Shown one piece after another: positions 4,339-23,000 of a stretch of 59,845 nucleotides of DNA. Positions within the stretch are counted from its first letter, which is position 1; the number at the start of each line of letters is the position of its first letter. The translations under genes and the position numbers were made by a program. A model generated the notes under the pieces. That model saw nothing but the letters and a program-made list of their open reading frames with translations. It was not told where the DNA came from and made no database searches. Location of the stretch: assembly GCA_947169825.1 (NCBI GenBank), contig CAMVRE010000003.1, positions 1-59,845 of the forward strand, written 5' to 3'. Origin of the DNA: an uncultured Verrucomicrobiota bacterium. GTDB taxonomy: Bacteria > Verrucomicrobiota > Kiritimatiellia > RFP12 > UBA3636.

Positions 4339-4370
4339 CGGCGGGGCGCGGCGATTGCCGCACCCCGCCG
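4339..4370. terminator. GC-rich hairpin after the first CDS (possible terminator or REP-like element)
   Basis: CGGCGGGGCGCGGC-GATT-GCCGCACCCCGCCG forms a 14-bp stem with one mismatch. There is no U-tract, so it is not a canonical intrinsic terminator. Confidence 0.4.
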
Positions 4371-4392
4371 AGTGTCTCCGGCCGGCGCGAAG

Positions 4393-4421
4393 TTGCGCCG
4401 GACACCCGCATCTGCTAGAAT
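4393..4421 (+). promoter_or_regulatory. Sigma70-type promoter of wzm (near-leaderless)
   Basis: TTGCGC (4393-4398), 17-bp spacer, TG-C-TAGAAT (4413-4421). The ATG follows 8 nt later, at 4430. Confidence 0.7.
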
Positions 4422-4429
4422 CGCGGTCC

Positions 4430-5245
4430 ATGCCGCCGGTCAACCAGACAGCAACGTCTCCGGACGTTCCGAACCCCTACCGCAAGCCGGGATTCCGCCA
4501 CGACGGCTTCCTCGTCGCGGAGCTCGTGAAGCGCGACTTCAAGGCGCGCTACGATCGGAGCGTCCTGGGGATGTTCTGGTGCGTGCTCCAGCCCACGCTC
4601 ATGATGGGGCTCCTCTACGCTGTCTTCTCGCTCTTCTTCAAAAGCGCCATTCCGAACTTCCCCCTCTACCTCATCTCGGGCATCGTCTTCTACCAGTTCT
4701 TCGTCGAGACGACGACCACGGCGATGCAGTCCATCCAGGAGAACGCGTCGCTCATCGCCAAGGTGAAGGTTCCCCTATGGACGTATCCGATAACCCGGGC
4801 CATCTCGAGCCTGATCAACTTCCTCTTCGCGCTGATCCCCCTGTTCTGCGTCGTCCTGCTGACACGCGTCCCCCTGCGTCCGACGATGCTGCTGCTGGCC
4901 TACAGCACGGTCTGCATGCTGTTCTTTTCGCTCGGAATCGGGCTCTTCCTCTCGTCGCTCGCCGTCTTCTTCCACGACGTGACGTTCCTCTGGGGCTTCG
5001 CGTGCATGCTCTGCATGTACGCGACGCCCGTCTTCTACCCGGAGGAGGTGCTCATGACCGGGCACCACTGGATGGTCTACTTCAACCCGCTCTACCACAT
5101 GATCCACTTTTCGCGCCTCGTCCTGAACGGGGAGATTCCGCTCCTCACGGAATTCGCCGCCTGCGCGCTCTTTGCGGCCGTCTCGTTCGTCCTGGGCCTG
5201 ATCGTGTTCCGCGCGCTCAAGAACAAATTCGCCCTCGCCCTCTGA
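4430..5245 (+). CDS. wzm: ABC-2 polysaccharide exporter permease
   Basis: ELVKRDFKARY..S.LG.FW..LQP and YATPVFYP..NPLYH motifs with about six hydrophobic segments. Start placed at ATG 4430, just after the promoter. Confidence 0.9.
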   Translation: MPPVNQTATSPDVPNPYRKPGFRHDGFLVAELVKRDFKARYDRSVLGMFWCVLQPTLMMGLLYAVFSLFFKSAIPNFPLYLISGIVFYQFFVETTTTAMQSIQENASLIAKVKVPLWTYPITRAISSLINFLFALIPLFCVVLLTRVPLRPTMLLLAYSTVCMLFFSLGIGLFLSSLAVFFHDVTFLWGFACMLCMYATPVFYPEEVLMTGHHWMVYFNPLYHMIHFSRLVLNGEIPLLTEFAACALFAAVSFVLGLIVFRALKNKFALAL

Positions 5246-5249
5246 TCCC

Positions 5250-6467
5250 ATGGACACGCTCATCGAAGCCAGGAGCCTGAGCCTCCGATTCTCCGCGCCG
5301 ACGGAGAAGAAGGGAAGCCTCAAGAAATGGGTGCTGGACGCCGTGCGCGGCCGGGTGCGAAGCCGGCACTTCCTCGCGGTGGACGACGTCTCCTTCCGCA
5401 TCGAGCGCGGCGAGGCCGTCGGCCTCGTCGGCCGGAACGGCGCCGGCAAGAGCACGCTCCTCAAGCTCGTCACCGGCATCGTGGTGCCGACCTCCGGCTC
5501 GATCGCCGTGCGCGGCCAGGTGGCGCCGCTGCTCGCCCTCGGCAACGGTCTCGACCCGACGCTCTCCGGACGCGAAAACATCTATCTCAACGGCGCGATC
5601 CTCGGCTACGAGAAAGCCTTTCTGAAAGCCCGCGAAGCCGACATTGTCGACTTCTCCGAGCTCGGCGACTTCATCGACGCCCCCGTCCGGACATACTCCT
5701 CCGGCATGACGATGCGTCTCGCGTTCTCTATCGCCTCCGCTGCCACCCCGGAAATCCTCATTCTCGACGAAGTCCTTGCCGTCGGCGATGCGCCCTTCCA
5801 AGCCAAGTGTCGCGCCCGCATCCGTGAGATCATTTCCGATGGCGCCACCGTCTTCTTCGTTTCGCACAGCCTTCCCGACATCGTGCAACTCTGCACCCGC
5901 GCCATTTGGCTGGCAAAGGGCCGGGTCGTAATGGACGGCCCCGCCGCCGAGGTCGCCGACGCCTACCACCACGACGCCGTCCCCGGCCCGGACGACCGCG
6001 AATCGTTGAACCTTCCCTTGCCCGTCCACCGCTTCCGCGCCCCGGCCCACGGGGACGAATGCCTCACGATCGACGAGGGGGAGCGGAACAGCATCCTCGC
6101 CATCATGAAGGAATGGGAGCCCGCCGGCATCGCCTACCGCGCCTTCGCGCGCCCCGTTCCGGGAACGGCTCCCCTCCACCGGTTCTACGCGCACGGCCGC
6201 CGTAGCCATTTCTACACGCTCGACCCGCACGAGCTCGACGCCTTCCGCACGCCCGGCTTCGACTGGGACTACGAGGGTATCTCCCACTACGTGTATCCGA
6301 AGAAAATCGAACATGCCGTCCCGGTGTTCCGCATTCGCGACACGAAGACCGGGAAGTTTTCCTTCAAGGCCGATGTCGGCCGCCCGGCCGGCGAAATCGC
6401 CTGGTGGGCGCTCCCGGCGGCTGCCGGCGACGGCGGGGAAGAACGGCCTCCACGGACGGAGGCATGA
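5250..6467 (+). CDS. wzt: Polysaccharide ABC exporter ATPase with C-terminal DUF5648-like triple repeat
   Basis: Walker A GRNGAGKST, signature YSSGMTMRLAFS, Walker B LILDEVLAVGD and H-loop VSH. The C-terminus (from about 6018) aligns with the HRFY..HFYT..W.YEG repeats of the downstream proteins. Confidence 0.9.
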   Translation: MDTLIEARSLSLRFSAPTEKKGSLKKWVLDAVRGRVRSRHFLAVDDVSFRIERGEAVGLVGRNGAGKSTLLKLVTGIVVPTSGSIAVRGQVAPLLALGNGLDPTLSGRENIYLNGAILGYEKAFLKAREADIVDFSELGDFIDAPVRTYSSGMTMRLAFSIASAATPEILILDEVLAVGDAPFQAKCRARIREIISDGATVFFVSHSLPDIVQLCTRAIWLAKGRVVMDGPAAEVADAYHHDAVPGPDDRESLNLPLPVHRFRAPAHGDECLTIDEGERNSILAIMKEWEPAGIAYRAFARPVPGTAPLHRFYAHGRRSHFYTLDPHELDAFRTPGFDWDYEGISHYVYPKKIEHAVPVFRIRDTKTGKFSFKADVGRPAGEIAWWALPAAAGDGGEERPPRTEA

Positions 6468-6480
6468 GGAACACCAACGC

Positions 6481-7614
6481 ATGAAGAACAAAAACATTCG
6501 GAGACTCGTCGCCTCGGCGGCGCTGGTTCTGTCGCTCGGGGCTGCCCCCGGCGCGCGGGCGAACCAACAGGTCGTCGACAGCGTGACGTGGACCTACGAG
6601 GTCAACGGCGCGAAGGCCACCATCACCGGGGCGAGCCCCCTTCCGAGCGCGCTCGTCTTCCCCAACAACCTCGGCGGCTTTACGGAGATGATCATCAAGG
6701 ATTATCTCTTTCAAACCCGCAGCGTCCTGAAGTCTGTCCGGATTTCCGACGGAGTGGCGGTCATCGGACGCTATGCTTTTTCCAAATGCCCCAACCTGAC
6801 GTCCGTGAACACCGGGAATGGCGTGAAGAACATCGGGGAGCACGCATTCATCGAATGCCGCAATCTGAAGTCCGTGACGATCGGAAACAGCGTGACGAAC
6901 ATCGGGGTCTGGGCGTTCGGCTACTGCACCAACCTCGTCTCGGTGGAGATCGGCGACGGATTGAGGAGTGTCGAGAACCACGGGTTTGGATCCTGCTACA
7001 GGCTCAGGTATCTGGCGTTCCCGGACAGTCTGGAGAGCATTGCCGCCGGCACTGGCGGCGCATTGACGACCGGCGGCGACCTGAACGCCGTCGCCGTGCC
7101 GAAGTCCTGGCAGGGGACGGACAAGCTCGACGGTACGGGAGTCCGGACCTACACCAAGATCTACTACGGTACGCAGAAGGTGACGTTCAACCCGACGGGC
7201 GGAGCGTGCGAGATGGCGACCCACAGGGTCGGAATCGGGGCGACGTACAAGGAGTTCGGCGGTCTGCCCGAGGCGACGAAGCCGGGGAGCCGGCTCGTCG
7301 GGTGGTTCACCGATCCGGGCAAGGGAACGCAGGTGACGGAGGACTCCACGGTGCCCGACACGGCGACGCGGACACTCTACGCGCGCTGGAAGCCAACGCA
7401 GACCGTGACGTTCGATCCGAACGGCGGGACCTGCCCGACGGAGACGAAGATCGTGGATCGAGGCCAGGCGACCGACACCTACGGGTGGGTGCCCGTGGCG
7501 TCGCGGGAGTATTTCGCGTTCCTCGGATGGTTTTCCGAGAAGGAGGGCGGCGAACCGGTGGAGTTCGACACGATGGTTTCGAGCGAGGCGGCGCGGACGC
7601 TCTACGCGCACTAG
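6481..7614 (+). CDS. Secreted BspA-type LRR protein with two InlB B-repeats (N-terminal part of a gene split by an in-frame TAG)
   Basis: Signal peptide, WTYEV motif, LxSVxIGxxVxxIGxxAF LRR_5 repeats, and VTFNPTGG..GWFT..TLYARW repeats. SD GAGG lies upstream, 13 nt after the wzt stop. Confidence 0.85.
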   Translation: MKNKNIRRLVASAALVLSLGAAPGARANQQVVDSVTWTYEVNGAKATITGASPLPSALVFPNNLGGFTEMIIKDYLFQTRSVLKSVRISDGVAVIGRYAFSKCPNLTSVNTGNGVKNIGEHAFIECRNLKSVTIGNSVTNIGVWAFGYCTNLVSVEIGDGLRSVENHGFGSCYRLRYLAFPDSLESIAAGTGGALTTGGDLNAVAVPKSWQGTDKLDGTGVRTYTKIYYGTQKVTFNPTGGACEMATHRVGIGATYKEFGGLPEATKPGSRLVGWFTDPGKGTQVTEDSTVPDTATRTLYARWKPTQTVTFDPNGGTCPTETKIVDRGQATDTYGWVPVASREYFAFLGWFSEKEGGEPVEFDTMVSSEAARTLYAH

Positions 7615-7629: not shown

Positions 7630-8838
7630 GTGTGGCGCTTCTATTCGCCGACCTACAAGGGCCATTTTTACACGATCGACGAGACGGAGAAGGACGGTCT
7701 GATCGCGAACAACCCGAACTGGACCTTCGAGGGAGAGGCCTATCGCGCCTTCACGGTGCGGAGGCCGGGAACGGTCGCGCTCCACCGCTTCTACTCGGCG
7801 AACTACCGGGGCCACTTCTACACGGTCGACGAGGCGGAGAAGGACGACATCATCGCGACAAACCAGAAGAACTGGACCTACGAGGGCGTCGCCTACTACG
7901 TTTTTCCGATGAACAATCCGGACCGTCTTCCCGTCTACCGGTTCTGGTCCGGACGCTACCGCCACCACTTCTACACGATGGACGCGGCGGAGATGGACGG
8001 CGTCAGGGACGGCGACCCGAACTGGACGTTCGAAGGCGTTGCGTTCTGGGCGATCCCAACCGAGGAAACGATCGGCAGAATCGAGAATGGAACGGCCTCG
8101 AGCCCGGAGTTCGTCAACTGGGGCACGACCCTGGCGTGGAATCTCCCCCACGGGAACGTCGTCGCGGGCTCCGTGGAGATTTTCTTCAATGGCGAGTCGG
8201 GCTTGAAGATCCTGGCCGACGACCAAACGGGGCTCCTCGTCCCGTGTTCGACCCTTGCGGTGGAAGGCCTGGTGAAATACTCCACCGGCCGGATCACGGT
8301 GACGTTCGCCAGCCATCCGGGCTTCGGAAAGAAGGTGTTCGTCAAATACAAGTACGTCAAGTCGTTGTCGACCGCTCCGTTGTCAGTCCCCAAAATGACG
8401 GTCAAGCCGTTGGCCGCCGTGGCATATGGAAACGGCGGCGCTTCCGATGAAGTGTCGTCCAATGGCCGCGTCGCCGAAGTCGTCCCGCCGTGGACGCTCG
8501 CGGCGGTGCCGGGCGCGGCTGTGATCGCCGTTCCCGGGGAGACGGACTTCGGCGGGGTTGTCGTGGAGACCCGCGCCGCCGTGCCGGACGCGGACGAACT
8601 GGCCGCGCCTGAGACTGGAGACGCGTCCGAAACGCTCGCACTGCGGCTCTCGCCGCCCGCCGGCACTTGGAATGCGTTGCTATGGAGCTCGACGGACGGC
8701 GTCGTCGCCGACGAAACGGCCGAAGGCGCGTTCGAATTCGACCTGCCCGCGAGCGGCGTCTGGCATTGGCTCCGCGTGCGAGCTGCGGAGGACGAAGATG
8801 CAGCGGATGCCTATTCCCTCTGGTTCCGCGCGGAGTAG
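7630..8838 (+). CDS. DUF5648 triple repeat + HGNVV domain + shared C-terminal domain (C-terminal part of the split gene)
   Basis: Same frame as 6481-7614 and separated from it only by TAG plus 5 codons. Contains three RFYS..HFYT..NW.YEG repeats and ends YSLWFRAE. AGGAGG lies 11 nt before the GTG. Confidence 0.75.
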   Translation: MWRFYSPTYKGHFYTIDETEKDGLIANNPNWTFEGEAYRAFTVRRPGTVALHRFYSANYRGHFYTVDEAEKDDIIATNQKNWTYEGVAYYVFPMNNPDRLPVYRFWSGRYRHHFYTMDAAEMDGVRDGDPNWTFEGVAFWAIPTEETIGRIENGTASSPEFVNWGTTLAWNLPHGNVVAGSVEIFFNGESGLKILADDQTGLLVPCSTLAVEGLVKYSTGRITVTFASHPGFGKKVFVKYKYVKSLSTAPLSVPKMTVKPLAAVAYGNGGASDEVSSNGRVAEVVPPWTLAAVPGAAVIAVPGETDFGGVVVETRAAVPDADELAAPETGDASETLALRLSPPAGTWNALLWSSTDGVVADETAEGAFEFDLPASGVWHWLRVRAAEDEDAADAYSLWFRAE

Positions 8839-8952: not shown

Positions 8953-11900
8953 ATGAAAGCCCCGCGCAGACGCTGTTTCCATCTTCTCCCGACCTTCCTT
9001 CTGCCGCTTCTCGCCGTCCAGCCGGCTACGGCGGAGGAAATCACCCTCGACCAGGCGGAGACCGCCGTCGGGAACTGGATCGCCGCCGGCGGCGGGTTCG
9101 GGAAACTGTCCAGCGGAACCGAGGTGTCCGGCAGGACGCTCGAGGATCCGGAAACCGGGGCGAGGATGCATGTCGTGAACGTTCCCGGCAAGGGATTCGT
9201 CGTTACCTCCGCCGACGACGGCATCGAGCCGATTGTGATGTTCTCCGACGACGGCGGCGTGGAGTTTGTCGCAGAGGTGGGCAACCCCGTATGGGATTTG
9301 CTCCGCTGGGACCTTGCTGTTCGCTCAGCAACGCTTCGAGAAGAACTTGAAGCGAGGAGAATGACGGAGACAAGCAATGATATGCCCGTTCATCGCAACA
9401 AGTCTTCCTTGTATTCCTCGATCGAAACTAGCGGGCAAACGGACAATTGTTCGCCGCGCGAAAAATGGAACGATCTTTTACGCAGGGAACTTAGGAAACG
9501 ATCCGCCTCGCGAGCGGCTTATGCCTCTTTGGAAGTTCTTGCGGAAGATGTTCGGCGATCACCGTTTTTGAAAACGAGGTGGAACCAGGGGAACGTAGGC
9601 GGACTCCCTTGTTACAACTATTTTACTCCGGTAAAGACCACTATCACGGTTGTAGGATCTTCTTCACGGGCTGTTCCTGCAGGGCATTCTGAAACACTGG
9701 AAACAAATCAAACGCACTACGTTTGCGGATGCGTTGCGACGGCTGGTGCCCAGTTGATGAAGTATTGGGAGCACCCGAAGTCGAGCGTCTCGCGCACAAC
9801 TGAAAAATGTTATGTGGACGGGACCTCAACCAATATAACGACGATAGGAGGAAAGTATAGGTGGTCTTCCATGCCGAACAAACCCGCGTCGAATGCGTCG
9901 AGGGATGAGCGCGAAGCAATCGGCCATTTGACTTTTGACATAGGGGTTTCATGCGGTGCCTCATACAAGGATGGTGGAACATCGATCAATATGGGGGCGC
10001 TTATTGCAAATTTGAAGTCTGTATTTAAATACCAATCGGCCTGCGGGGTTAATTGCAAAGTCGCCAGTTCGTCCGGATCGTCTTTTGAAACGCTGAAGAA
10101 TATGGTTCTTCCGAATCTCGATGTTCGAGCGCCCGTTCTTGTGGGAATCCGAAATACGGCCTCGGGGGGCGGGCATTGTGTTCTGGCGGACGGATACGGT
10201 TATCAGTCGGGTAGCCTTTACTTGCATTTGAATATGGGATGGGGAGGCTCCGCCGACCTGTGGTACTCCCCTCCACTTATTAGAACGTACGATGTCATTG
10301 ACTACATAGGCGGAAATGTGTTCCCAAATGAAACAGGATCGATTTTGAGCGGACGGGTCATAGGCAAAAACGGGCGCCCCATTGGCCATGCGGTTGTCAG
10401 CTTGCTATCTTCAAATGGCACCCAAGAAGGAACGTTTATTTCTGCGGAAGATGGTGTCTTTCATTTCGTCAAAACCGCCGGAACGTATGTTGTTGCCGCC
10501 GAAGCCGCAAATCATTATGCCGATTCAGAAACCATTGTTCTTGGCAGTTCGTCGACAAGTTCGATTGGAAACACAATACATGACATTTCCCTGATGGATG
10601 CCGAAACCGTTTCAGCGATTTGGCATCGCAGTTCCACTGTGACGCCAAATTCCGGCGCATCGGTTCGAACTCGTTCTGGCGAACAGACCGATCTTGTCAT
10701 TTCCGGTCCAATTATGGTGGCGCTAGGGTCTGAAACGGACAGTGCTATGATCCACTATACCTTGGACGGCACAATGCCGACGGCCGAAAGCCCGCTCTAC
10801 GACGGCCCAATCTCGATCCAGGACACGACAACGCTCCGTGCCGTGGCGTATGCCGACGGCATGGAGTGTAGCGAGACATTTGAGCAGACATGGACGTATG
10901 TCGACCCGGTCAGTCGCGACAACTTCGCGGATGCGCGTCCGTTGGCGAGCACGAGCGGCAGTTCGACTTTTTCCAACGTCGGCTACACGAGGGAGGGCGG
11001 AGAGCCGGTCCACTCGAGCGCCGGGTCTTCCGGCGGCGCCTCGGCGTGGGCGTCGTGGACGGCGCCGTCGACCGGAGACTGGACGTTCCGGCTCGAGTCC
11101 GCCGGGGACAATGCGCAGGTGACCACCCCCAATCCGCAGCTGGCGGTATACATCGGTTCCTCCGTTGATGCATTAACCCTCGTGGCCGCGAACGACGACA
11201 TTTGTCCGGATCGGTGGAGCGACGCCTACGACGTCTCGAGCATGGTCGCCTTTTCGGCTTTCGCTGGCGAGACCTACAAAATCGCAATGGACACGCGCTA
11301 TGGCTCCTATGGCGACTCCTACGTCGGAGACCTGCTCCTGAGCTGGGCCGAGGGTTTTACGCATTGGGCGAGGCTCGACTACTGTTCCCTGTTTGCACCC
11401 GGACCGGGAACGACGGCCTCGGTTGGCGTGGAATCCTCCGCTGGCTGGTGCGTCGTCGAGTGCTCCGATTGGATCATTCCCGATTCGGCGACGGGAACCA
11501 ACGGACAGCAGCTCGCGTTCTCCGTCCTCGCCAACGAAACCGGTGCGGATCGCTACGGCTCCATCTCGATCCAGTCCGGAAACTCCGACATCGCCACGGT
11601 GTCGGTCCGGCAGCACGTCATGGACTTCGTCACGAAACGGGAGGAGGCGGTGGAGGCGGCCTGGCGGGAGAACAAGCGCATACTTCTCGTCCGCGGACGA
11701 GAAGTATGCCCCAACACGAGCGGAACCCTTTTCTCGTCCATTCCGTCTTCGACCATCCGACCGCTGGTAGAGGCCGGGTACGTCCTCTGGTACAGCAATT
11801 GTGATCGCCAGCGGGATGCGAGCGCCTATTCCGCCGGAGGATCCCTTCCCACGGTCGCCATCCTCGACCCGCTGGACATGTCCGCCCCCGCCCCCGCGAC

Positions 11901-14900
11901 ATCCGGCTATCAAAGCCCGGGCGAGCTCAGGTCCTTTCTCGAGACGAATGCATCTTGGGACGGGCTTGCGTCGCCAACGGAAGTGACGCTTTCAGGCGTC
12001 GGCACGGTGATGTCGGCAACACCCTTTTCGATGGCCGCGACGTTTGCGGACGGCACCGTCCTTGACATGAAGCATGGCACGACCTGGGCAATCGCATCCG
12101 GATCGGCCGCGACAATTTCAAAGACTGGCGTCCTGACGCCCGTGTCCGGGAAGACGGGAACCGTGACGGTGAGCGGTTCCGTTGTCCTGCGGGGTCAGAC
12201 ATACACGCGGACAAAGAGTGTTCGCATCGTCGATCCGACAACCGTCACGGGACTCTCCCTGAGCGGGCCGGGCACCATAGACCTCTACGACGAAGTCAGC
12301 GGGCTCTTCACGGCGACCGCCACGTTCAGAGACGGGACAACGGCGATCATCGCCCCCAACTGGTCGGTTGAGGAGACCGCCGTCACGAATGCGGTTATTT
12401 CTTCGGATGGCCTTGTCACGTTCCCCGACCCGGAGAAATACACCAAGGCGTCCAGGCTCAGGGTCACGGCGGAGTGTAACGGCATATCGGCGTCGAAAGA
12501 GGCCGACGTGTGGGGGTGGAGCGTCACCCTGTCGTCGTGGACGACGCCGCAGCGCGTCGTCTGGCCGGGGCAAACGCTGAAGATCGTGCCCAAGACCGTG
12601 ACATGGTGGCGGCACGGCAAGACGGAGGAGCCGACGACGGATCTATCCAACGTCGACTTCGGCATCGAACACGGCTGGGTGAACGGAAAAACATTATTGA
12701 GCGCCGCCAACGCGGCTTCCGGTGAGAACGGCCTGACGCAGAAAATACCAACCGACGTTTCGGAACCAGAAGGCGACTGCAGCTTTTATGTCACGACGGC
12801 GGCGACGCGGTTTGGACATACCATTACAAAGGTTAAATGGCCGGAGTTCAAGTATCTGCCTTCCGCTCCCTTGCAGACGGTCGACGTGACCTTCGTCGCG
12901 GATGGTGGCGAACCGGCGACGCAGACAACGAAGTACGCTGTAGGACACACCTACGGCCATTTCCCGGACGCCGCCCGCAAGGGATATTACGGCACCTGGT
13001 ACACAGCGGCCGAAGGCGGAACCCGCATGACTACCGCCTCGAACTGCGTCGCCTCCGTGACGCGGCTCCATGCCCGGTGGTCGCCGAACAGCTACTACAT
13101 CTCCTACGACTCCAACGGCGGCACGGGGTCGATGTATGGACAATACTTCTACTACGACACTCCTGCCAACCTGCGACCCAACGCCTTCTCGAAGCCCGGC
13201 TCGGTCTTCGCCGGCTGGGCGACGGCGCCGGACGGCGAAGTCGTCTTCGAGGACGAGGCGGCCATCCTCAACCTCTACGACTCCTACCATTCCCTCAAGC
13301 TCTACGCCAAGTGGGTCGAGAACGGCTACCGAATCTCGTTCGACGCGAACGGGGGCGTCGGCTCGATGCCGCCGCACATCTGCCGCATCGGCACCCGCTC
13401 CGCCCTCCCGCCGACCCTCTTCACGAGGCGCGGCGCGACGTTCGCCGGCTGGGCGAGAGCGCCTGGAAGCGCGGCGGAGTTCGCCGACCGTTCCGAAGTC
13501 TTGAACCTCGTCTCGACCGTCGGCTCCACCGTGACGCTCTACGCCGTCTGGAACCTTCCCGCCGTGAAGACGATTGAGCTGACAGGACCCGACGTCATCG
13601 ACCTCTACGATGTGGAGTCGGCGCAGTTTTCGGCCGTATGCCGACTTGCGAACGGCACTGCGGTGGATGTCGCGCCCAAATGGGTGATCGAGGAGACCGC
13701 CGTCACCAACGCGGTTGTCTCCACCGACGGTCTCATTTCGTTCCCCGATCCCACAAAATACACGAAAGCGTCCAAGCTGAGAGTGACGGCCGACTGCAAC
13801 GGCGTGCGCGCCTCCCGCATGGTCGACGTGTGGGGCTGGCGCGCCTCGCTGTCGTCATGGACGACGCCGCGACGCGTCGTCTGGCCGGGGCAGGCGATCC
13901 AGGTCGTGCCGCTGGCCGTGACCTGGTGGCGGCACGGCGTGACGGAGAATCCGACGACGGATTTCTCCGGCGTCACGTTCGGCTTCTACTACGGCTACAT
14001 CAACGGGAACACGTATCTGAGCGCCACGAGTGCGACATCCGGACCGGATGGTCTTTCCCTGGTTCTTCCGGAAGGTCTGTCGGAACCGGAGGGCCGCTGC
14101 TACATGGGCGTCAAGACCGATGCAATGCGTCATGGAAAGACGGTCTCGAGCTACCTCTACCCCTACTTCAAGTTTCTGCCCTCCGCTCCGGCGCAGACGG
14201 TCTCGGTGACGTTCGAAGCGAACGGCGGGGAGCCGGCGACCCAGACGATGGAATACGCGGCAGGCTACACCTACGGCTATCTGCCGGAAGCCGTCCGCAA
14301 AGGGTATTCCTATGGCGGCTGGTACACTGCGGCGGCGGGCGGAACGCAGATTTCGACGGAATCGACCTGCGATGCCTCCCAGACGCGGCTCTATGCCAGA
14401 TGGTCGCCGCGCTACTACTACATCGATTACGATCCCAACGGCGGAACGGGGACGATGTACGGGCAATACTTCTACTATGACGATCCCGCCAACCTGACGG
14501 CCAACGCCTTCACGAAAGTCGGCCATACGTTCGGCGGCTGGTCCATGGAGCCGGGCGGCGTGGCGGTCTTCAAGGACAAGGCGGCCATCCTCAACCTCGC
14601 CAGCGTCTATACGAACATCACGCTCTACGCCGCCTGGACTCCCGCCACGTACACCGTGACGCTCAACGCCCAGAACGGTACGGGCGGCTCCGCCTCCGCC
14701 ACCGCGACCTACGGCGCCGCCATGCCCGCCATCACGATGCCGGCCCGCACCGGGTACGCGTTCGGCGGCTACTACACCGCGGCCAACGGTGGCGGCACCC
14801 TGTACTACACCGCCGCCGGAACCTCCGCCCGCACCTGGGACAAGGCCGCCGCCACGACCCTCTACGCCAAGTGGACGGCCAAGACCTATGCCGTGACGCT

Positions 14901-16065
14901 GGATCCGCAGGGCGGCGAAGGCGGCTCCGCCACCGTCACGGCAACCTTCGGCTCCGCCCTGCCCGACATCGCGGTCCCCCGTCTCGAAGGGCTCTTCTTC
15001 GACGGATACTGGACGGAGCCGGACGGCGAAGGCGTCCCGTACTACACCGGGTCCGGCACGAGCGCGAGGAACTGGGATCTGGCCTCCGGAACAACGCTGT
15101 ACGCCCACTGGATCGAATCCGTCCCGCTCGCCGTCCACCGCTTCTACTCGAAGGCCTACAAGGGCCACTTCTTCACGATCTCGGAGGAAGAGAAGCAGAA
15201 CCTGATCGACACGAACCCGAACTGGAGGTACGAGGGGGCCTCATACCGGGCCTTTACGAACCAGGTCGCCGGAACGGCGGCGCTCTACCGCTTCTACTCG
15301 AAGGGCTACCGGGGACACTTCTTCACGGTCGACGCCGAAGAGGCGGAAACGGTGAAGAAGAACCCGAACTGGAAATACGAAGGCATCGCCTACTACGTGT
15401 ATCCGGAGAAGGTCGAAGGCTCCGTGCCGGTGTTCCGGTTCTGGAGCAAGGCCTACCGCCACCACTTCTACACGACCGACGAGGCCGAGAAGGACACGCT
15501 GATCGCCACGAACCCGAACTGGAAGTACGAGACCGTCGCCTTCTGGGCGCTGCCCGCGGAGGACGACAAGGCGAAATTCGCAATGCGCAAGGCCCAAGAC
15601 GCAATGCGCAATGCAGAAATCCTCATGCTGAATGAGGAACCGGACGCACCGGGATTCGCACTGGAAACGGAAGACGGGGAGCGGATCGCCACGCCGGGCG
15701 TGGCCAAGGTCGGGAATGCGCTCCTCGAGACACGCGGAGAGGCGCCGGACGCCGCGGAGCTTGCCTCTCACGCAGAGAGCGCAGCGTTCAAATCTCACGC
15801 AGAGAGCGCAGAGAACGCAGAGTCTTCTTCTCACGCGGAGTCCGCGGAGGTCACGGAGGCCCTTCCCTTCCGTCTGGCGCTGCCCACCGGCGTCTGGAGC
15901 GCTTCGCTCTGGAGCGCCGCGGAGGGCATGCTCGAAGAGGAGGAGGCCAAAGGCTCCTTCGACTTCGCCCTGCCCGCAACCAGCGTCTGGCACTGGCTTC
16001 GCGTCCGCGACGCGGCGGACGAGGACGCCGACAACGCCTTCTCCCTCTGGCTGCGGGCGGAATAG
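8953..16065 (+). CDS. Secreted C10 (streptopain-family) cysteine peptidase, 2370 aa, with Ig-like/PPC/BACON/thioredoxin-like/InlB repeats, DUF5648 x3 and the shared C-terminal domain
   Basis: Signal peptide and Spi-like prodomain (GFVVTSADDGIEPIVMFS). Catalytic motifs WNQG, CGCVATAGAQLMKY, GGHCVLADGY and HLNMGWGG. YTLDGTMPT (chitobiase/FN3-associated), InlB repeats and three DUF5648 repeats follow. Ends FSLWLRAE. Confidence 0.9.
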   Translation: MKAPRRRCFHLLPTFLLPLLAVQPATAEEITLDQAETAVGNWIAAGGGFGKLSSGTEVSGRTLEDPETGARMHVVNVPGKGFVVTSADDGIEPIVMFSDDGGVEFVAEVGNPVWDLLRWDLAVRSATLREELEARRMTETSNDMPVHRNKSSLYSSIETSGQTDNCSPREKWNDLLRRELRKRSASRAAYASLEVLAEDVRRSPFLKTRWNQGNVGGLPCYNYFTPVKTTITVVGSSSRAVPAGHSETLETNQTHYVCGCVATAGAQLMKYWEHPKSSVSRTTEKCYVDGTSTNITTIGGKYRWSSMPNKPASNASRDEREAIGHLTFDIGVSCGASYKDGGTSINMGALIANLKSVFKYQSACGVNCKVASSSGSSFETLKNMVLPNLDVRAPVLVGIRNTASGGGHCVLADGYGYQSGSLYLHLNMGWGGSADLWYSPPLIRTYDVIDYIGGNVFPNETGSILSGRVIGKNGRPIGHAVVSLLSSNGTQEGTFISAEDGVFHFVKTAGTYVVAAEAANHYADSETIVLGSSSTSSIGNTIHDISLMDAETVSAIWHRSSTVTPNSGASVRTRSGEQTDLVISGPIMVALGSETDSAMIHYTLDGTMPTAESPLYDGPISIQDTTTLRAVAYADGMECSETFEQTWTYVDPVSRDNFADARPLASTSGSSTFSNVGYTREGGEPVHSSAGSSGGASAWASWTAPSTGDWTFRLESAGDNAQVTTPNPQLAVYIGSSVDALTLVAANDDICPDRWSDAYDVSSMVAFSAFAGETYKIAMDTRYGSYGDSYVGDLLLSWAEGFTHWARLDYCSLFAPGPGTTASVGVESSAGWCVVECSDWIIPDSATGTNGQQLAFSVLANETGADRYGSISIQSGNSDIATVSVRQHVMDFVTKREEAVEAAWRENKRILLVRGREVCPNTSGTLFSSIPSSTIRPLVEAGYVLWYSNCDRQRDASAYSAGGSLPTVAILDPLDMSAPAPATSGYQSPGELRSFLETNASWDGLASPTEVTLSGVGTVMSATPFSMAATFADGTVLDMKHGTTWAIASGSAATISKTGVLTPVSGKTGTVTVSGSVVLRGQTYTRTKSVRIVDPTTVTGLSLSGPGTIDLYDEVSGLFTATATFRDGTTAIIAPNWSVEETAVTNAVISSDGLVTFPDPEKYTKASRLRVTAECNGISASKEADVWGWSVTLSSWTTPQRVVWPGQTLKIVPKTVTWWRHGKTEEPTTDLSNVDFGIEHGWVNGKTLLSAANAASGENGLTQKIPTDVSEPEGDCSFYVTTAATRFGHTITKVKWPEFKYLPSAPLQTVDVTFVADGGEPATQTTKYAVGHTYGHFPDAARKGYYGTWYTAAEGGTRMTTASNCVASVTRLHARWSPNSYYISYDSNGGTGSMYGQYFYYDTPANLRPNAFSKPGSVFAGWATAPDGEVVFEDEAAILNLYDSYHSLKLYAKWVENGYRISFDANGGVGSMPPHICRIGTRSALPPTLFTRRGATFAGWARAPGSAAEFADRSEVLNLVSTVGSTVTLYAVWNLPAVKTIELTGPDVIDLYDVESAQFSAVCRLANGTAVDVAPKWVIEETAVTNAVVSTDGLISFPDPTKYTKASKLRVTADCNGVRASRMVDVWGWRASLSSWTTPRRVVWPGQAIQVVPLAVTWWRHGVTENPTTDFSGVTFGFYYGYINGNTYLSATSATSGPDGLSLVLPEGLSEPEGRCYMGVKTDAMRHGKTVSSYLYPYFKFLPSAPAQTVSVTFEANGGEPATQTMEYAAGYTYGYLPEAVRKGYSYGGWYTAAAGGTQISTESTCDASQTRLYARWSPRYYYIDYDPNGGTGTMYGQYFYYDDPANLTANAFTKVGHTFGGWSMEPGGVAVFKDKAAILNLASVYTNITLYAAWTPATYTVTLNAQNGTGGSASATATYGAAMPAITMPARTGYAFGGYYTAANGGGTLYYTAAGTSARTWDKAAATTLYAKWTAKTYAVTLDPQGGEGGSATVTATFGSALPDIAVPRLEGLFFDGYWTEPDGEGVPYYTGSGTSARNWDLASGTTLYAHWIESVPLAVHRFYSKAYKGHFFTISEEEKQNLIDTNPNWRYEGASYRAFTNQVAGTAALYRFYSKGYRGHFFTVDAEEAETVKKNPNWKYEGIAYYVYPEKVEGSVPVFRFWSKAYRHHFYTTDEAEKDTLIATNPNWKYETVAFWALPAEDDKAKFAMRKAQDAMRNAEILMLNEEPDAPGFALETEDGERIATPGVAKVGNALLETRGEAPDAAELASHAESAAFKSHAESAENAESSSHAESAEVTEALPFRLALPTGVWSASLWSAAEGMLEEEEAKGSFDFALPATSVWHWLRVRDAADEDADNAFSLWLRAE
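12253..14640 (+). repeat. Internal tandem duplication (about 1320 bp offset) within the 2370-aa peptidase gene
   Basis: SGPGTIDLYD..EETAVTNAV..FPDP.KYTKAS.LRVTA.CNG..VWGW..LSSWTTP.RVVWPGQ..VTWWRHG occurs at about 12253 and again at about 13573. Confidence 0.85.
15316..16065 (+). repeat. Near-identical 750-bp repeat, copy 1 (3' end of the first C10 gene)
   Basis: Matches 26936-27685 at offset 11620 with 9 differences counted by eye. 15340-15923 is identical. Confidence 0.9.
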
Positions 16066-16080
16066 ACGAAACCTTCGACA

Positions 16081-18456
16081 ATGCCCTTGCCCCACGACCG
16101 GTTCGGTACCGCCCTTCCCCTCGCCGTCTGCCTCCTCTGCATGGCGGCACTGGCGCCGCTATTGGGCGCGCCGCTCCTTTTCGACGACGACTCGGTGGTC
16201 GCGAAGGATCCGTTCGTGGCGGCGGTCTGCTCGGATGATTCCGACGATGGCTCCCCGTTCCATGACCTGTGGCACCGGCCGCGTCCCGTCCGGATCCTGA
16301 CGCATCGCATCGATGCGAAGGTCTTCGGCCCCTCCCTCGTCGGCCCCCATGCGGAGAACATCGCGCTACATATCGGAGTCGGGCTCCTCTTCGCCGCCCT
16401 GCTGCGCGCAATCGGCGTTCCGGATGGAACGCGGCTCGCGGCGATGGCGCTCTTCCTGCTCCATCCGGTCTGCGTGGAATCCGTAGGCATTCTGAGCCAC
16501 CGGAAGGAAATCCTCTCCGCGCTGTTCCTCCTGGCGGCGCTGCACCTGTCGCTCTCGAGCCGTCCCGCGGTCCGGGCCGCGGCCTTGCCCCTCCTTTTCC
16601 TCGCGACCTTTTCCAAGGAAACGTCGGTCGTGTTCCCGGCGCTCTGGCTACTGGCGGACTCCGAACGTTCCCGACGGGCCGGAAAGCCCTTCCGCCCCGA
16701 CGGCCCCCGCCTTCGCGCCTTCGCCCTCTGGACGCTCCTTTCCGGCGCGCTTGCCGCGCTCGCCTGGCTCCAGATCCGGCACGGCATGGCCGTCCTTGGG
16801 GCCGCCCCCGCGCTCGATCCGGACCGAGCGGGGCATTTCGGCGGCGGCGCGCCCTGGGGGCTCGCCGTCTCCGCCGCGCTCCGGGCGCTTCCCCGGCATC
16901 TGGCCGGGCTTCTCGTGCCGTGGGGGCACTCGATCGACCCGGCCTTCGACCTCGATGTCCCGCTCGCGTCCCCGCGCACGCTCGGGGCCGCGGCGTTCTG
17001 GATTGCCGTCGTGGCGGCCCTCTTCCGGCTGCTGCGACGCCGATCGGGGCTGTCCGCCCCGCTGGCGTGGACGGTCGTCGCTCTTTCCCCCTATCTGTTC
17101 CCTCCTTTTCTCCGCTCGGGGGGAACCGCCGCCTATTGCGACCGCTACGCCTACCTGGCGGCGGCCGGATTCGCGTGGCTCCTGGCGGAGGGGCTCCATG
17201 CGGCGGCCGCAAGGGCGGGACTCCTCGGCCGAAGGGCGGCCGCGCCCGCGGCGGCCGTCGCCGCCGTGTTCGCGGGCTGTACGCTGGCGGAGGCGCTCGA
17301 CTTCCGGTCCGAGGCGGCGTTCTGGGGCCGGGCAAGCCGATGGAACCCCCGGTCGCCCCAATCGCGGTACAATCTCGCCTACGCGCTCTGGACGGAAGAG
17401 GGGAAGGCCAAGGATGCCCAGGCCGAATTCGAACGGATGCGGGCGCTCGCCCCGGGCTTCGCGTTCGGCATGGCCGGCTATGCCGACTTTCTCGCGTCGC
17501 AACGGAAGGACGACGCGGCGCTCGAGATTCTGGAGCAAGGCCTCCGAAGCCGGCCCGGAAATCCGATCCTGCTCCGGAAGAAACCGGCGATCCTTCTCCA
17601 TGCCGGACGATACACGTCGGCCCTGAAGGCCTGCCGGGCGGCCGAAGCCGCCGGCATCGGCTCGGCCTCCTTCCAGTTCGTCTTCGCGGAGGCCTGCCGC
17701 AACAACCTGCTCTGGCCCGAGGCATATCGTCGGTACCGAAGGGCCGCGGCCGCCGACCCCTCGTACCGCGAAGCCGCCCGGAGGAACGCCATCCTGGTCG
17801 CAGACCCCGCCGACGCGGACAAGGCGCGCGGCCTTCTGGTGCTGGGGGACAGCGTCCCGCACGGAACGGACGCGCTCGGCGCGGGAAGGCCGGGGACGCC
17901 CCTGGCGCAACGCGTCGCCGCGCGGCTCGGCGACCTCCCCTTCCGGGACGATTCGGAGCCGGGAAGCCTCGCGGGCGACCTGCCCCCGACCATCGCCGAA
18001 CGGTCGGAACAAGGCGAGGAGCGCCCTCGCTGGTGCATCGTCATGACCGGCCACAACGACGCCTTCCACGGAATTCCGGCGGACCCGATTCTGTTCCAGA
18101 TCGCCCAATGCGCCTACCGGGCGAGAGAGGCCGGAATGCGGGTTCTCGTCGTCGGCCCGATTCCCGTGAAGGACGCCCCGGAACGGAATCGGGGACGACA
18201 GGAGGAAATCCTGGCCGAACTGGACGCGAAGCTCGCCGCGTTCTGCACCTCGTCCCGCGTGGCATTCGTCTCCTCGCGGGACGGCCTCGCCGAAGTCGCC
18301 GCGCCGCCCGGAGGATGGCTCGTTCCGGAGGCGGGAAACCACCTCGTCGACGCAGGCCTCGAACGGGTCGCCGACCTCTGCGCCGACGCCATCCGCCGCG
18401 CGGAGGCGACGAACCGGCGGAAAACGCTCGATCCAGACTTGCCTTCCGCACGATGA
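16081..18456 (+). CDS. TMTC-like GT-C glycosyltransferase with TPR region and C-terminal SGNH domain
   Basis: LLFDDDSVV acidic loop, RP..H..NIALH, LFLLHPVCVESV..RKE, FSKE and DRYAYL motifs across multiple TM segments. TPR-like helices follow, then SGNH blocks GDSV, G, GHND and GNH. Confidence 0.75.
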   Translation: MPLPHDRFGTALPLAVCLLCMAALAPLLGAPLLFDDDSVVAKDPFVAAVCSDDSDDGSPFHDLWHRPRPVRILTHRIDAKVFGPSLVGPHAENIALHIGVGLLFAALLRAIGVPDGTRLAAMALFLLHPVCVESVGILSHRKEILSALFLLAALHLSLSSRPAVRAAALPLLFLATFSKETSVVFPALWLLADSERSRRAGKPFRPDGPRLRAFALWTLLSGALAALAWLQIRHGMAVLGAAPALDPDRAGHFGGGAPWGLAVSAALRALPRHLAGLLVPWGHSIDPAFDLDVPLASPRTLGAAAFWIAVVAALFRLLRRRSGLSAPLAWTVVALSPYLFPPFLRSGGTAAYCDRYAYLAAAGFAWLLAEGLHAAAARAGLLGRRAAAPAAAVAAVFAGCTLAEALDFRSEAAFWGRASRWNPRSPQSRYNLAYALWTEEGKAKDAQAEFERMRALAPGFAFGMAGYADFLASQRKDDAALEILEQGLRSRPGNPILLRKKPAILLHAGRYTSALKACRAAEAAGIGSASFQFVFAEACRNNLLWPEAYRRYRRAAAADPSYREAARRNAILVADPADADKARGLLVLGDSVPHGTDALGAGRPGTPLAQRVAARLGDLPFRDDSEPGSLAGDLPPTIAERSEQGEERPRWCIVMTGHNDAFHGIPADPILFQIAQCAYRAREAGMRVLVVGPIPVKDAPERNRGRQEEILAELDAKLAAFCTSSRVAFVSSRDGLAEVAAPPGGWLVPEAGNHLVDAGLERVADLCADAIRRAEATNRRKTLDPDLPSAR

Positions 18457-18532: not shown

Positions 18533-19915
18533 ATGAACAATCCGCTCGTAAATCGCGCCATCGCCGAAACCATGCTTCTTGTCTCCTTCGTCCTAGCCAC
18601 AGGCTGGACCGCAAAGAGGTCCGACTCGGACCGTGGAAGCGACTTCGACCATGTCGGCAGCTACTATGCCCCGAAATACTATGGCTCTGGCGGATCCTAC
18701 GGCTCCTCCGGCGGATCCTACGGCTCCTCCGGCGGATCCTATGGCTCCTCGGGCGGATCCTACGGCTCCTCCGGCGGATCCTACGGCTCCTCGGGCGGAT
18801 ACTACGGCTCCTCGGGCGGATACTACGGCTCCTCGGGAGGGGCCATTTCCGACATGGTTTCCCACCGTTTCGACCGTTTCGACACCGACGAGGAAGTCGT
18901 CGAAGAATACTACGCGGACTGGCAAGAAGCGCCCCACTCCTCCTATTCCTCGCGCAGAACCATTCCGGGGGCGGCGGGGGAGGAGCCGCTGGCGTTCACG
19001 AAGGGGGATCTCTGGTTTCAATGGAAAGCACCCCAGGACGGCCCCGTTTCGTTCAGCACTCGCGGAAGCCAATCGACGCCCGAGTGGGGCTGCGACACGC
19101 GGCTTGCCGTCTACCGTCTCGTCTCTCCGCAATCGCTGCTGAATTCGGGGGCCTATGGGTATTACTGGTATTATGACGAGAACAATCAAGATTGGTCTAC
19201 AAGTTATGCGGAGTATACGACCGGGACGGCCAACAATGATTGGGATGTGCTGTATGACGCCAATGGCAACAAGGTCGATCGGTACGCCATTCCGGACGGC
19301 ACGTCATGGGGGCTGGAAATGGCATCCAACGAGGACGAGGAATCCAACATCTACGAATGCACGAGCCTGGCGGGGTTCTCTGCCGAAAAAGACTCCTCCT
19401 ATGTCGTCAAAGTGGAGGCCTGGGATCCCGGCGAGGTTCGCCTCGCCTGGCACATGGACGGAAACGAGGCGGAGGTTGCGAAGTCCGTCCACCGCTTCTA
19501 TTCCAAGAACTACAAAGGTCATTTCTACACGATGGACGAGGACGAGAAGGACAGCCTCATCCGTACGAACCCGAACTGGAGGTACGAAGGCGAATCCTAT
19601 GCGTCCAACTATGATGGCGGCGGCCGCCTCGTGCCCCTCTACCGCTTCTACTCCAAAGGCTACAGGGCGCACTTCTTCACCATCGACATAGACGAGCGGG
19701 ACGAACTGATCCTCACCAACCCGAACTGGAAGTTCGAAGGGATCGCCTATTACGTGCTGGACGGTCCCACCGAGGACACCCAGCCCGTCCATCGCTTCTG
19801 GTCCAAGGAATACCGCCACCACTTCTACACGATGGACGAAGCCGAGAAGGACAACCTGATCGCGACGAATCCGCATTGGAAGTACGAGGGAATCGCCTAT
19901 TATGCGGTTCCATGA
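18533..19915 (+). CDS. Secreted protein with GGSYGSS repeats, a PPC-like domain and DUF5648 x3 (no extra C-terminal domain)
   Basis: The hydrophobic N-terminus follows ATG 18533. Contains DLWFQWKAP.DG.VSFSTRGS..DTRLAVY and three DUF5648 repeats, ending IAYYAVP-TGA. Confidence 0.85.
   Translation: MNNPLVNRAIAETMLLVSFVLATGWTAKRSDSDRGSDFDHVGSYYAPKYYGSGGSYGSSGGSYGSSGGSYGSSGGSYGSSGGSYGSSGGYYGSSGGYYGSSGGAISDMVSHRFDRFDTDEEVVEEYYADWQEAPHSSYSSRRTIPGAAGEEPLAFTKGDLWFQWKAPQDGPVSFSTRGSQSTPEWGCDTRLAVYRLVSPQSLLNSGAYGYYWYYDENNQDWSTSYAEYTTGTANNDWDVLYDANGNKVDRYAIPDGTSWGLEMASNEDEESNIYECTSLAGFSAEKDSSYVVKVEAWDPGEVRLAWHMDGNEAEVAKSVHRFYSKNYKGHFYTMDEDEKDSLIRTNPNWRYEGESYASNYDGGGRLVPLYRFYSKGYRAHFFTIDIDERDELILTNPNWKFEGIAYYVLDGPTEDTQPVHRFWSKEYRHHFYTMDEAEKDNLIATNPHWKYEGIAYYAVP
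18689..18835 (+). repeat. 21-bp coding tandem repeat x7
   Basis: GGCGGAT(C/A)CTA(C/T)GGCTCCTC(C/G) x7, encoding (GGSYGSS)5(GGYYGSS)2. Confidence 0.95.
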
Positions 19916-20027
19916 GCCTTCGACCCTTTCCCGCTGCGCCGCCCGCCGAAACCGGACGGCGCTCTTTTCCGTACTCCCGAAACCCGCTTTCCCTCCCACC
20001 CTGTTCCCAACGAGGAGCATCCCCGCC

Positions 20028-23000
20028 ATGAACCAGTGCCATGCCCATCCCGTCCGCCCCTTCACTTCACAGGGTTCCGGTCTTCATCCCTGCCGAGCCT
20101 ACTCCGCGTTTCCCCGCGCGGGAGTCGCCTTCCGCCTTTTCGCCATTGCCGCGGCTGTGTTCACGGCTGCATCCGCAGGGGCGATGACGGACCGCGAGGA
20201 AATGGAGTTGGCCACATCCGGTAAGACTAATGTCAAGAAGGCTTCTTCTGAAGGGTATTCGGAGAAACCGACGCCGAGCGATACACTTTTCACGAACGGA
20301 TGGTCCGCGACTATTGGGCAGTACCTTGGATATGGAAACGAAATCACAATTCCAATCGACATTGAGAGGTTTTTTGGAAACAAGCAAAAACTTATTGCAA
20401 GTGGCGCTCTTCCGGATCATGCGGAACTAACGTTGTATGCGTTTGACGTCGATGAAGACACAACCCCTGGACGCCCAGAGGAAGACAAGGTCTATTTCAA
20501 TGGCCACTATATTGGTACATTGACAGGTCACAATAACGCTTGGAGACAAAATACATTCCCAGTTCCCATTGAACTGGTCAATCTCCCCACTTCACCAGGC
20601 GACAAGGCCGAGAATGTCATTCGCATTGAGATCGACGTCTACACAAAAATGGATTGGTGTGTTCAAATTGATTGGGCCGCGCTTGAAATTCCAGCGGCAC
20701 CGCCTGTCATTGTTTCTCATGGAATTGATGACAATGAAAAAGGGATGGGTGATTTGGTGAAAGAAATTGAATCGTTGGGGTTGCCAGTCCATGCATTCGA
20801 CTATCAGCGTGAGGGGTATTCCTCCATTCAATCCGGTGCATTCGAGCTAAAACAGCAAATTGACACTTGGCTAGGTAATTGGAACGTTGACAAGGTTACA
20901 ATTGTTGCCCATTCAATGGGAGGCCTGAAAGCTCGCCATTACATTTCCGAATACGATTGGGGGGGAAGGACGGTTGATCGAATCCTTCAAATCGCTACTC
21001 CTAATGGTGGCTCCGATCTTGCAAAAACAGGCGGTCTCCTCAACTGGGGTAGAATCATATGGAATGTTGGTACTTTTGACCCCTGGGAAGCATGGACTGT
21101 ATGGAAACCTGCATTTCGTGATTTGACGAAGGAAAACATGGCAACATACAACGCAGCGCATCCGCTTTCCGACAATGTCAAGTATTGTGTCCTTGCAGGA
21201 AATTGCAATCCAAAATGGAAGCATTTTTGGCAAAATTTCAACTCGAAATATAGACTCATTGAATTTAGCGAAGGGGATGGGGCAGTTTCTGTTGAAAGCG
21301 CGCACACCATGGTTCCGCGACTTGCGGGGTCGGCCATCCAAGACATCAGGGCAACGCATGGTGGACTTGTCATGTATAATCCTCCAAGAGGAGGGCAAGG
21401 AATGGTACATGAGGTAGTTTATGGCTATCTCAAGAAACAACTTGTCGAAAGACGAAGCAGCTTTGGATCTGGAGTTTGCTCCCCGTCGAATAAAACGAAG
21501 ATGTCCACCACCCCGAAGAGATCAACACTATCCGAAGATGCGTCTGCTTGGTCAAGTGCCTCCTCGATTATCATGTCTGGCCCCAAAATGGCCTCCTCTC
21601 AAACCACCAAGATTGAATTTCCCATCAGGAAAAGCAATGCCGCCTTCGTTCAGCTTATGATTGATGGCAATGACTCTACCTACTTGCTGTTGCGCTCTCC
21701 GAATGGTTCTGTTATTTCTGAAAGCGATGATACAACCCTCATCGCCAATGACGGGTCAAGCACCATCATTGTCCTTGCCAACCCTCTCCCCGGAACATGG
21801 AAACTGGAATTCAAGACGGCCGATTCCAATGGCTTGTGGTCTGTTTTAGTGCAAGAGGCCGATTCGGGCATTGAGTTGAATCCAGAATTGGCGGCGGAGA
21901 CAGTTCGCGTCGGCAACTCGTTCTCCATCACAATGCGACCGAAGGTGGATGGCAAAACTCAGACAGGCCTTCCATGTTCTGTTGTAGTGTTAAGACCTGA
22001 CAAAACCTCGGCAACCTATGCGCTTCGCCACACGGGCGGCGGCGTCTATTCGGCATCGATACCCGCCTCGGCGGAAGGAATATATCCCATGCTTGTGCAG
22101 GCGACGATTGAGGGAACAACGTATTCGTGCAGCCTCTACGGCACGGCGTACACGTCCTCCGCGACCATCGGCGCGGACGCGGGGAGCGGTCCCGTGGACG
22201 AGGACGGCGACGGAATGAACGACTGGCTCGTCGCGAAGGTGGGCATTTCGGACCGGGATTCATCCAAGGCGTATCGCGTCCTCGCGGAACTGGTCGATGC
22301 CAACGGCGACCACATCGAATGGGCTTCGGGAACGGCCGAGGCCGGAGCGTCCTATGCGGAGCTGTATTTCAACGGCGCGCACATCTTCGACTACGGAAGG
22401 ACCGCGAAATACGTCATCACCGACGTCCGTCTCTTCGAGATGGGCGACGACTGGGAGGCGCAGACCGACGCCCGGTCGAACTGGCTGGAACTGGACGGTT
22501 CGTCCTGGGCGCGATACGAGCACGAGCTCATGACGGTCGTCGGCACCGGCGAGGATTCGGTCGTTCGTCCGGGCGGAGCCACGACGGGCGATCTTTCCGT
22601 CGGACTGGATGTCGCGTTCGATGCGTCGGTTTCGGGTTCCTACGACTTCAGCGCGTCGCTCCGGGCGCAGGACGGCACACTTGTCGCCTCGGCGTACGGA
22701 ACGGCGACGCTGACCACGTCCCTCGCCGAGGGCGTGGACGTCCGGCGCGTCGCAATGACCTTCCCCGGAGAGGAGATCGTGGCGGCGGGGCTGGAAGGCC
22801 CCTGGACCGTCACGGACGTCCTGTTCTGGAACTCCTCCCACGAGCTGTCCCCCGAGGGCGAGTACGAAACCTCCGTCCGGAACCTTTCGAGCCTGCAAAG
22901 CGGCTACGATCTGGCGTTCGCGTTGACGGGAAGACTCGTCGGCGACTGGCCGGAGGCCGTCTACCTCTCCGGCACGCCGAGCGAGAAAGGCAGCGAGACG

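Follow-up and report, generated by a model that had tools for sequence, protein, structure and literature searches.

Why do five neighboring genes for otherwise dissimilar secreted proteins end in the same domain, and what does this domain do? The window (the whole stretch of DNA analyzed here, 59,845 nucleotides) is high-GC DNA from contig C3 of a 3.08-Mb assembly that is 73% complete. From ~6.3 to 32 kb, its + strand carries an array of genes for multidomain secreted proteins. A homologous C-terminal domain (CTD) of 115 to 140 amino acids is shared by five of the genes, whose ends lie at 8838, 16065, 25196, 27685, and 29946. The bacterium that encodes these five tagged neighbors is an uncultured rumen member of the class Kiritimatiellia. 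Kiritimatiellia are abundant polysaccharide degraders in the rumen, the gut, and marine sediments. The CTD may bear on how PVC-group bacteria keep enzymes and adhesins at the cell surface, a process that is poorly understood.

The original prediction described the CTD as an unnamed, Trp-rich, and beta-rich domain that is always terminal, and proposed that it might be a sorting or secretion signal. We find the domain in all five ORFs, and the description held in each respect that we could check: a profile built from the five copies matches exactly these five places in the whole genome (E 1e-56 to 4e-50). All copies in the genome (73% complete) sit in one 22-kb array. Pairwise identity ranges from 32 to 65%, with genes B and D at 99%. 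Each copy contains four to six Trp residues and has a pI of ~4.

The layout of the domain can be followed in gene A, whose whole profile match spans 8479-8835 (this feature and all others given for the array lie on the + strand). Its N-terminal part (PWTL...VETR..PDADEL; profile match, 8479-8601) holds three short strands. A variable acidic loop of 9 aa, placed from alignments, follows at 8602-8628, and a core of ~70 aa that we call u2 occupies 8629-8835. The core motif (L.LRL..P.G.W...LWS..DG...EGAFEF.LP..GVWHWLRVR....SLWFRAE) runs directly into the TAG stop at 8836-8838. The CTD of gene B (8953-16065) lies at 15643-16062, behind a C10 peptidase, Flg_new, BACON, and DUF5648. Gene C (19902-25196) has the most divergent copy (24846-25193), with an alpha/beta-hydrolase and DUF5648 as cargo. 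A C10 peptidase and DUF5648 precede the copy of gene D (25052-27685) at 27263-27682. Gene E (27733-29946) joins a BspA-type LRR and DUF5648 to a copy at 29590-29943.

Gene A comprises two pieces (6481-7614 and 7630-8838), split by an in-frame TAG (7612-7614) at a position that is Trp in the paralogs (TLYAH*E versus TLYAHW). The gene that holds the CTD copy at 8470-8838 may thus be broken or split. If translated alone, the downstream piece (DUF5648-CTD, 7630-8838) would be without a signal peptide. The final 750 nt of genes B and D (15316-16065 and 26936-27685) differ at nine sites, with strong divergence upstream. This near-identity indicates recent exchange of a DUF5648-CTD cassette, by gene conversion or duplication. 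All five local CTD genes end in TAG. We rejected TAG as a special stop for such genes, since relatives use TGA, TAA, and TAG; the local copies have the codon in common through shared ancestry and gene conversion.

The variable loop of the CTD grows from 9 aa in gene A to ~32 aa in genes B and D, and reaches ~90 aa in relatives. Within it are repeats of the HAESAE type, rich in His, Ala, Glu, and Ser (SHAESAE..), at ~15760-15850 in gene B and ~27380-27470 in gene D. Loop repeats also occur in the relatives P0009, P0011 (SHAEYAEFV, five times), and P0026. Two further elements lie between DUF5648 and the CTD: a recurrent linker motif, (E/A)MRNAQ, and an extra domain of ~100 aa in gene A (8060-8470), gene E (29250-29580), and the relative P0002. 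The latter has the motif ..HGNVVPGSLTVYLDG...GRVNYQSGAITVTF..VTASYRY and no Pfam match.

The CTD family is absent from Pfam, NCBIfam, and PDB sequences. Four of the copies had no match in Pfam or NCBIfam at E ≤ 10, which agrees with the domain having been called unnamed, and a profile search of PDB sequences with the CTD likewise returned nothing at E ≤ 10. Weak Pfam matches to yeast MF_alpha were rejected, as they stem from the tetrapeptide WHWL alone. We found no paper on the family in the literature and nothing relevant for Kiritimatiellia and T9SS.

Among 1.84 billion representative proteins, the five-copy profile matched 63, of which ~53 are true single-domain relatives. All of these carry the match no more than 19 residues from the C-terminus. 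Giant repeat proteins (P0045, P0049, and others) were rejected as members, as their matches are generic Ig-like repeats in multiple stretches with low per-domain scores. DUF5648 lies directly upstream of the CTD in 44 of the 47 relatives long enough to judge, and Flg_new repeats do so in the other three; linkers between DUF5648 and the CTD span 0 to 196 aa. Cargo in the family includes C10, C13, and caspase-like peptidases, a lipase-like hydrolase, BspA-type LRRs, CAP, and RHS repeats. Across several families, the final residues are conserved (WLRAE; WIGHLRTH, or WIGHxRTH).

Eight of the 31 genomes from the taxonomic family of the source carry the CTD, always at the C-terminus and followed by any of the three stop codons. 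Profile searches of proteins and genomes thus bear out the claim that the domain is always terminal: it is strictly C-terminal in every relative found. As for its taxonomic range, the CTD is confined to Kiritimatiellia within a 401-genome sample of the phylum.

An AlphaFold2 model of the CTD alone (gene E copy; alignment of 15 sequences from the window and the protein search) is an all-beta sandwich (pLDDT 89.6, pTM 0.80). The beta-rich character seen in the sequence is thus also predicted in the fold. Three short N-terminal strands (domain residues 10-13, 23-27, and 30-35) pack against the core in the model and are followed by a one-turn helix at APDxxEL, the variable loop, and four long strands. 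The model indicates that the CTD is an independently folding domain. Modeled together, DUF5648 and the CTD are each well folded, at an overall pTM of 0.50, with a disordered linker and a pLDDT below 50 at residues 229-239, within the CTD loop. The low pTM and disordered linker suggest that the CTD is a separate module, flexibly tethered to DUF5648. These two observations, and the linker lengths of 0 to 196 aa in relatives, led us to reject a composite DUF5648-CTD domain.

Foldseek searches of PDB and BFVD with the CTD model gave no match at E ≤ 1e-3. The best matches are FN3- or Ig-like domains (TM 0.4 to 0.5 on the target, E 0.02 to 0.2), a generic resemblance; among these insignificant matches are FN3-like domains from glycoside hydrolases and a single porphyran-binding CBM. 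Searches for known CBM families gave no Pfam match, and none appeared at E ≤ 10 in the PDB profile search. By these searches, the CTD matches no known CBM family, and its likeness to Ig-like folds is generic. Trp and Arg residues conserved across families fall at strand positions that we read as surface-facing from strand alternation, not from coordinates.

DUF5648 precedes the CTD in all five array genes (PF18885, E 1e-35 to 3e-38), at 7630-8052 in gene A, 15133-15549 in gene B, 24180-24602 in gene C, 26750-27169 in gene D, and 28825-29247 in gene E. It has been described as a three-bladed glycan-recognition domain in O-antigen-targeting toxins, in a preprint on Bacteroidales pore-forming toxins (bioRxiv 10.1101/2025.01.06.631476). 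Two array proteins have DUF5648 and no CTD: one encoded at 18533-19915, with the stop 2 aa after DUF5648, and one at 30126-32018, with beta-helix, Flg_new, and DUF5648. Both end 2 to 5 residues past DUF5648, as originally noted, and both have signal peptides (judged by eye), so that they provide an internal control.

The array begins behind a polysaccharide export pump, made up of Wzm, an ABC-2 permease (Pfam; 4355-5245, +), and a Wzt-like ATPase (Pfam; 5250-6467, +). In the ATPase, a C-terminal DUF5648 takes the place of the sugar-reading domain. With this ATPase included, all eight DUF5648 ORFs of the genome lie within 5202-32018, so that the entire DUF5648 system of the source genome is confined to one island. 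After the array come genes for large glycosyltransferases and RgpF-like genes. The CTD loci of genomes G027, G030, and G262 likewise adjoin genes for glycan synthesis or export. Besides polysaccharide genes, no gene is conserved beside the CTD genes, and no conserved candidate machinery gene is found there. Orthologs of the Wzt-DUF5648 fusion occur in 7 of the 12 genomes of the genus, 3 of which have the CTD, and the CTD is also present in genera without the fusion. We therefore rejected a strict coupling of the CTD to this pump, as the two do not strictly co-occur across genomes.

The core of the CTD is part of a wider family. In another family of the class, small ORFs encode a signal peptide and a stretch of ~80 residues, alignable to the final 70 of the CTD (hhalign probability 96.3%, E 1.6e-9). 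Searches with these small proteins and with a broad alignment place such units in 26 of 301 genomes of the class and in 10 of 141 genera. The broad unit profile matches the five local copies at E 1e-17 to 1e-20 (gene A, 8617-8835, E 1.2e-20). Scored against separate profiles for the two unit types, u1 and u2, the local core is of the u2 type.

In most lineages with units, secreted proteins of various kinds have a tandem u1-u2 at their very C-terminal end. In four lineages (G363, G429, G548, and G014) and in genus g3 of the source's family, the tandem ends 1 to 5 residues before the stop. Cargo of the tandem includes S8 subtilase, CAP, beta-helix, beta-propeller, BACON, and ice-binding-like domains; DUF5648 is absent from the tandem proteins of G548. 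Locus L082 (G429:C135, 1-11316), from another family of the class, is an array of at least four consecutive genes, each with DUF5648 and then a tandem u1-u2 end, one of them encoding an S8 subtilase with three PPC domains.

A direct profile-profile comparison of u1 (genera g3 and g7) with the core was not significant (hhalign E 0.053). Evidence for a relation between u1 and u2 comes instead from intermediate sequences: units of G548 match the profile of the small proteins (2e-10 and 1e-7), and a single alignment accommodates all units. In the local CTD, the N-terminal 35 to 40 residues are spaced like the last strands of u1 from genera g3 and g7 and close with the same motif (..E.R.DAPD). Judging from this correspondence, the N-terminal part of the local CTD may be a truncated remnant of u1.

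In Pontiella, the two units are found on separate proteins. A stand-alone u2, consisting of a signal peptide and u2 without cargo, is conserved there in more than 200 protein clusters. Its hosts include the cultured species P. desulfatans (PDESU_03362), P. sulfatireligans, and P. agarivorans, where it is annotated as hypothetical. The stand-alone u2 gene is the next gene after one for a large Ig-repeat protein ending in u1. Unit scores separate the two clearly: the end of the large protein is u1-type (42.5 versus 6.4 bits), while the small proteins are u2-type (46 to 55 versus 2 to 9 bits). That u1 and u2 are fused elsewhere and split into neighboring genes here hints at contact between the two parts. 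This pattern of fusion and fission suggests that u1 and u2 may bind each other.

In at least 14 loci, the stand-alone u2 gene is directly followed by genes for a small lipoprotein, a short Wza-like OPX protein (Poly_export and SLBB), a beta-barrel, and a Wzc-like protein (GNVR and AAA_31). These Pontiella operons include L043 (G410:C44, 7849-12341), L044 (G247:C47, 3681-10939), and L046-L062. The lipoprotein is 137 aa long, and a putative flippase and, in G247, an FGE-sulfatase-like protein are also encoded.

The original prediction had likened the CTD to a T9SS-type CTD or a beta-signal for crossing the outer membrane. Neither likeness survived comparison. There are shared features with the T9SS CTD of Bacteroidota, which is also a beta-sandwich of ~70 to 120 aa at the extreme C-terminus of unrelated Sec cargo, with conserved last residues. 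However, models of T9SS CTDs (PF18962/TIGR04183; TIGR04131/PF13585) had no match to four local copies at E ≤ 10 and none among 42 family members searched singly, and no T9SS CTD appeared among the top 50 Foldseek matches in PDB. With neither a sequence nor a structural match, we rejected membership of the T9SS CTDs. To our knowledge, T9SS has been described only in Bacteroidota and close allies. Our search for SprA/Sov (TIGR04189) found nothing in 31 genomes of the family, although it was equally silent in all 14 control genomes. T9SS CTDs occur on tens to hundreds of scattered cargo proteins, whereas here there are five copies in one array. The PVC-group host, the two-unit u1-u2 build, and the cargo-less stand-alone form are further differences. 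An OMP beta-signal was also rejected: the model shows a soluble sandwich rather than a barrel, and the proteins end in Glu or Asp (RAE or RAD), with no terminal aromatic residue.

Other known C-terminal signals and domains were also compared. Sortase and exosortase signals (LPXTG, PEP-CTERM) were rejected, as the CTD has no hydrophobic or transmembrane helix and no basic tail; a single PEP-CTERM-like tail was found in the whole genome. PPC (PF04151) resembles the CTD in being a C-terminal beta-sandwich on secreted hydrolases. In contrast to PPC, the CTD is not limited to peptidases as cargo, and among 42 members one matched PPC, at an insignificant E of 0.096, and the others not at all. Moreover, several relatives in the CTD family bear true PPC domains upstream of the CTD module.

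Our best explanation, which we hold tentatively, is that the CTD is a surface-docking or retention module at the cell envelope. The enzyme or adhesin would first be exported by Sec, and the CTD, an autonomous acidic and Trp-rich beta-sandwich made up of a putative u1 remnant, a variable acidic loop, and the u2 core, would then tie its protein to a partner at the envelope. Candidates for this partner are a protein with u1, some component linked to polysaccharide export, and the glycan that is exported. Within the island, the CTD would form a second attachment point beside the glycan-binding DUF5648. The module would in this way retain proteins at the surface. The occurrence of u1 and u2 in fused and split form and the recurrent placement beside glycan loci favor docking, for which gene neighborhood is the main support. 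Genes for surface proteins are often near polysaccharide loci, so the linkage of the CTD to glycan genes could be coincidence. The strong acidity of the CTD (pI ~4) fits poorly with direct binding of anionic polysaccharides.

Several of the same observations can be read in other ways. A recognized sorting signal, such as one read by a putative outer-membrane translocon or attachment enzyme, would show a strictly C-terminal position and conserved last residues just as well; the CTD would then be an unrelated analog of T9SS CTDs. The diverse cargo bearing Sec signal peptides also suits a sorting tag, and to this extent the original idea stands; a further point in favor is a size and fold similar to those of T9SS CTDs. 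The distribution of the domain speaks for something else: five copies in a single island (genome 73% complete), a patchy occurrence in the class, and no conserved candidate machinery gene beside the CTD genes. No SprA candidate appeared in the 31 genomes, although the control genomes were equally silent. In addition, the array contains two paralogs with signal peptides and without the CTD; therefore, the CTD is not needed for export as such. The conserved cargo-less u2 protein, encoded in an operon for export of polysaccharide and not protein, speaks against a signal for protein export, as does the lack of sequence or structural match to T9SS CTDs. On balance, the CTD probably does not serve as an export signal proper, although it may take part in sorting in a wider sense, and we consider this whole reading unlikely.

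Alternatively, the CTD might be a CBM-like module for substrate or host targeting. Its ligand would be an external glycan or protein of the rumen, to which it would direct the enzymes and adhesins, rather than anchor them to the cell that makes them. It has the appropriate form, a small beta-sandwich with conserved aromatic residues, and is paired with a glycan-recognition domain; some of its fold matches, all insignificant, are to domains of carbohydrate-active proteins. Yet it matches no CBM family, and CBMs are not confined to the extreme C-terminus. Furthermore, u2 in Pontiella belongs to a polysaccharide-export operon, not a degradation locus, and the u1 and u2 split suggests contact between proteins. 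We regard external-ligand binding as distinctly unlikely. A passive structural element with no partner, whether terminal cap, spacer, or folding aid in the manner of PPC-type pro-domains, seems very unlikely. On its long disordered linkers, the CTD does not cap a neighboring domain, the cargo extends far beyond peptidases, and a conserved, secreted stand-alone form needs a function of its own. The Trp and Arg residues conserved at strand positions inferred to face the surface (by strand alternation, not coordinates) also argue against it. In favor of such a role are the generic Ig/FN3 resemblance, the one weak match to PPC, and the tendency of the profile to draw in generic repeated Ig-like domains at low per-domain scores.

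The surface-docking reading can be extended to a more specific proposal, which we consider doubtful: that u1 and u2 together make up a two-part system for protein display, specific to Kiritimatiellia. A terminal u2, whether fused or supplied as a small secreted protein as in Pontiella, would clamp u1 and thereby link secreted enzymes and adhesins to the apparatus for polysaccharide export in the outer membrane, or to what it exports. If this were true, these bacteria would anchor proteins by a route that relies on neither T9SS, sortases, nor autotransporters.

As we read it, docking by the CTD would resemble that of dockerin and cohesin in cellulosomes, where diverse secreted enzymes likewise terminate in a small module; that u1 and u2 occur both fused and split suggests a comparable contact between modules. 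The folds are unrelated: dockerin has a Ca-binding, EF-hand-like helical fold, while the CTD is an all-beta sandwich. Unlike in the cellulosome, no scaffold protein with repeated partner modules was found. If docking is true, a further likeness is to SLH domains with pyruvylated cell-wall polymer and to other noncovalent glycan anchors, in that proteins would be held on a polymer made by a neighboring gene cluster. The comparison with SLH anchors differs in one respect, namely that DUF5648 is a better candidate than the CTD for glycan binding in this island.

Secreted proteins tagged with a beta-sandwich at the C-terminus are known in general; the novelty here lies in the u1/u2 build, the split form, and the PVC-group host. 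The natural split in cultured Pontiella strains, together with the two-unit build, makes the question testable at the bench. The family also provides an annotation handle for ~50 partly unannotated protein clusters and for the more than 200 clusters of hypothetical proteins in Pontiella. Should docking by the CTD prove true, the module could be put to use for surface display in such bacteria.

Two other features of the window were observed. Inside the array, a gene at 16081-18456 encodes TPR and an SGNH/GDSL-hydrolase and has no homolog on the compared CTD-bearing contigs of relatives. Farther downstream, two paralogous ORFs of 131 aa (47980-48375 and 50358-50753) are 80 to 86% identical to ORFs that lie beside RgpF-like genes in G027 and G030.
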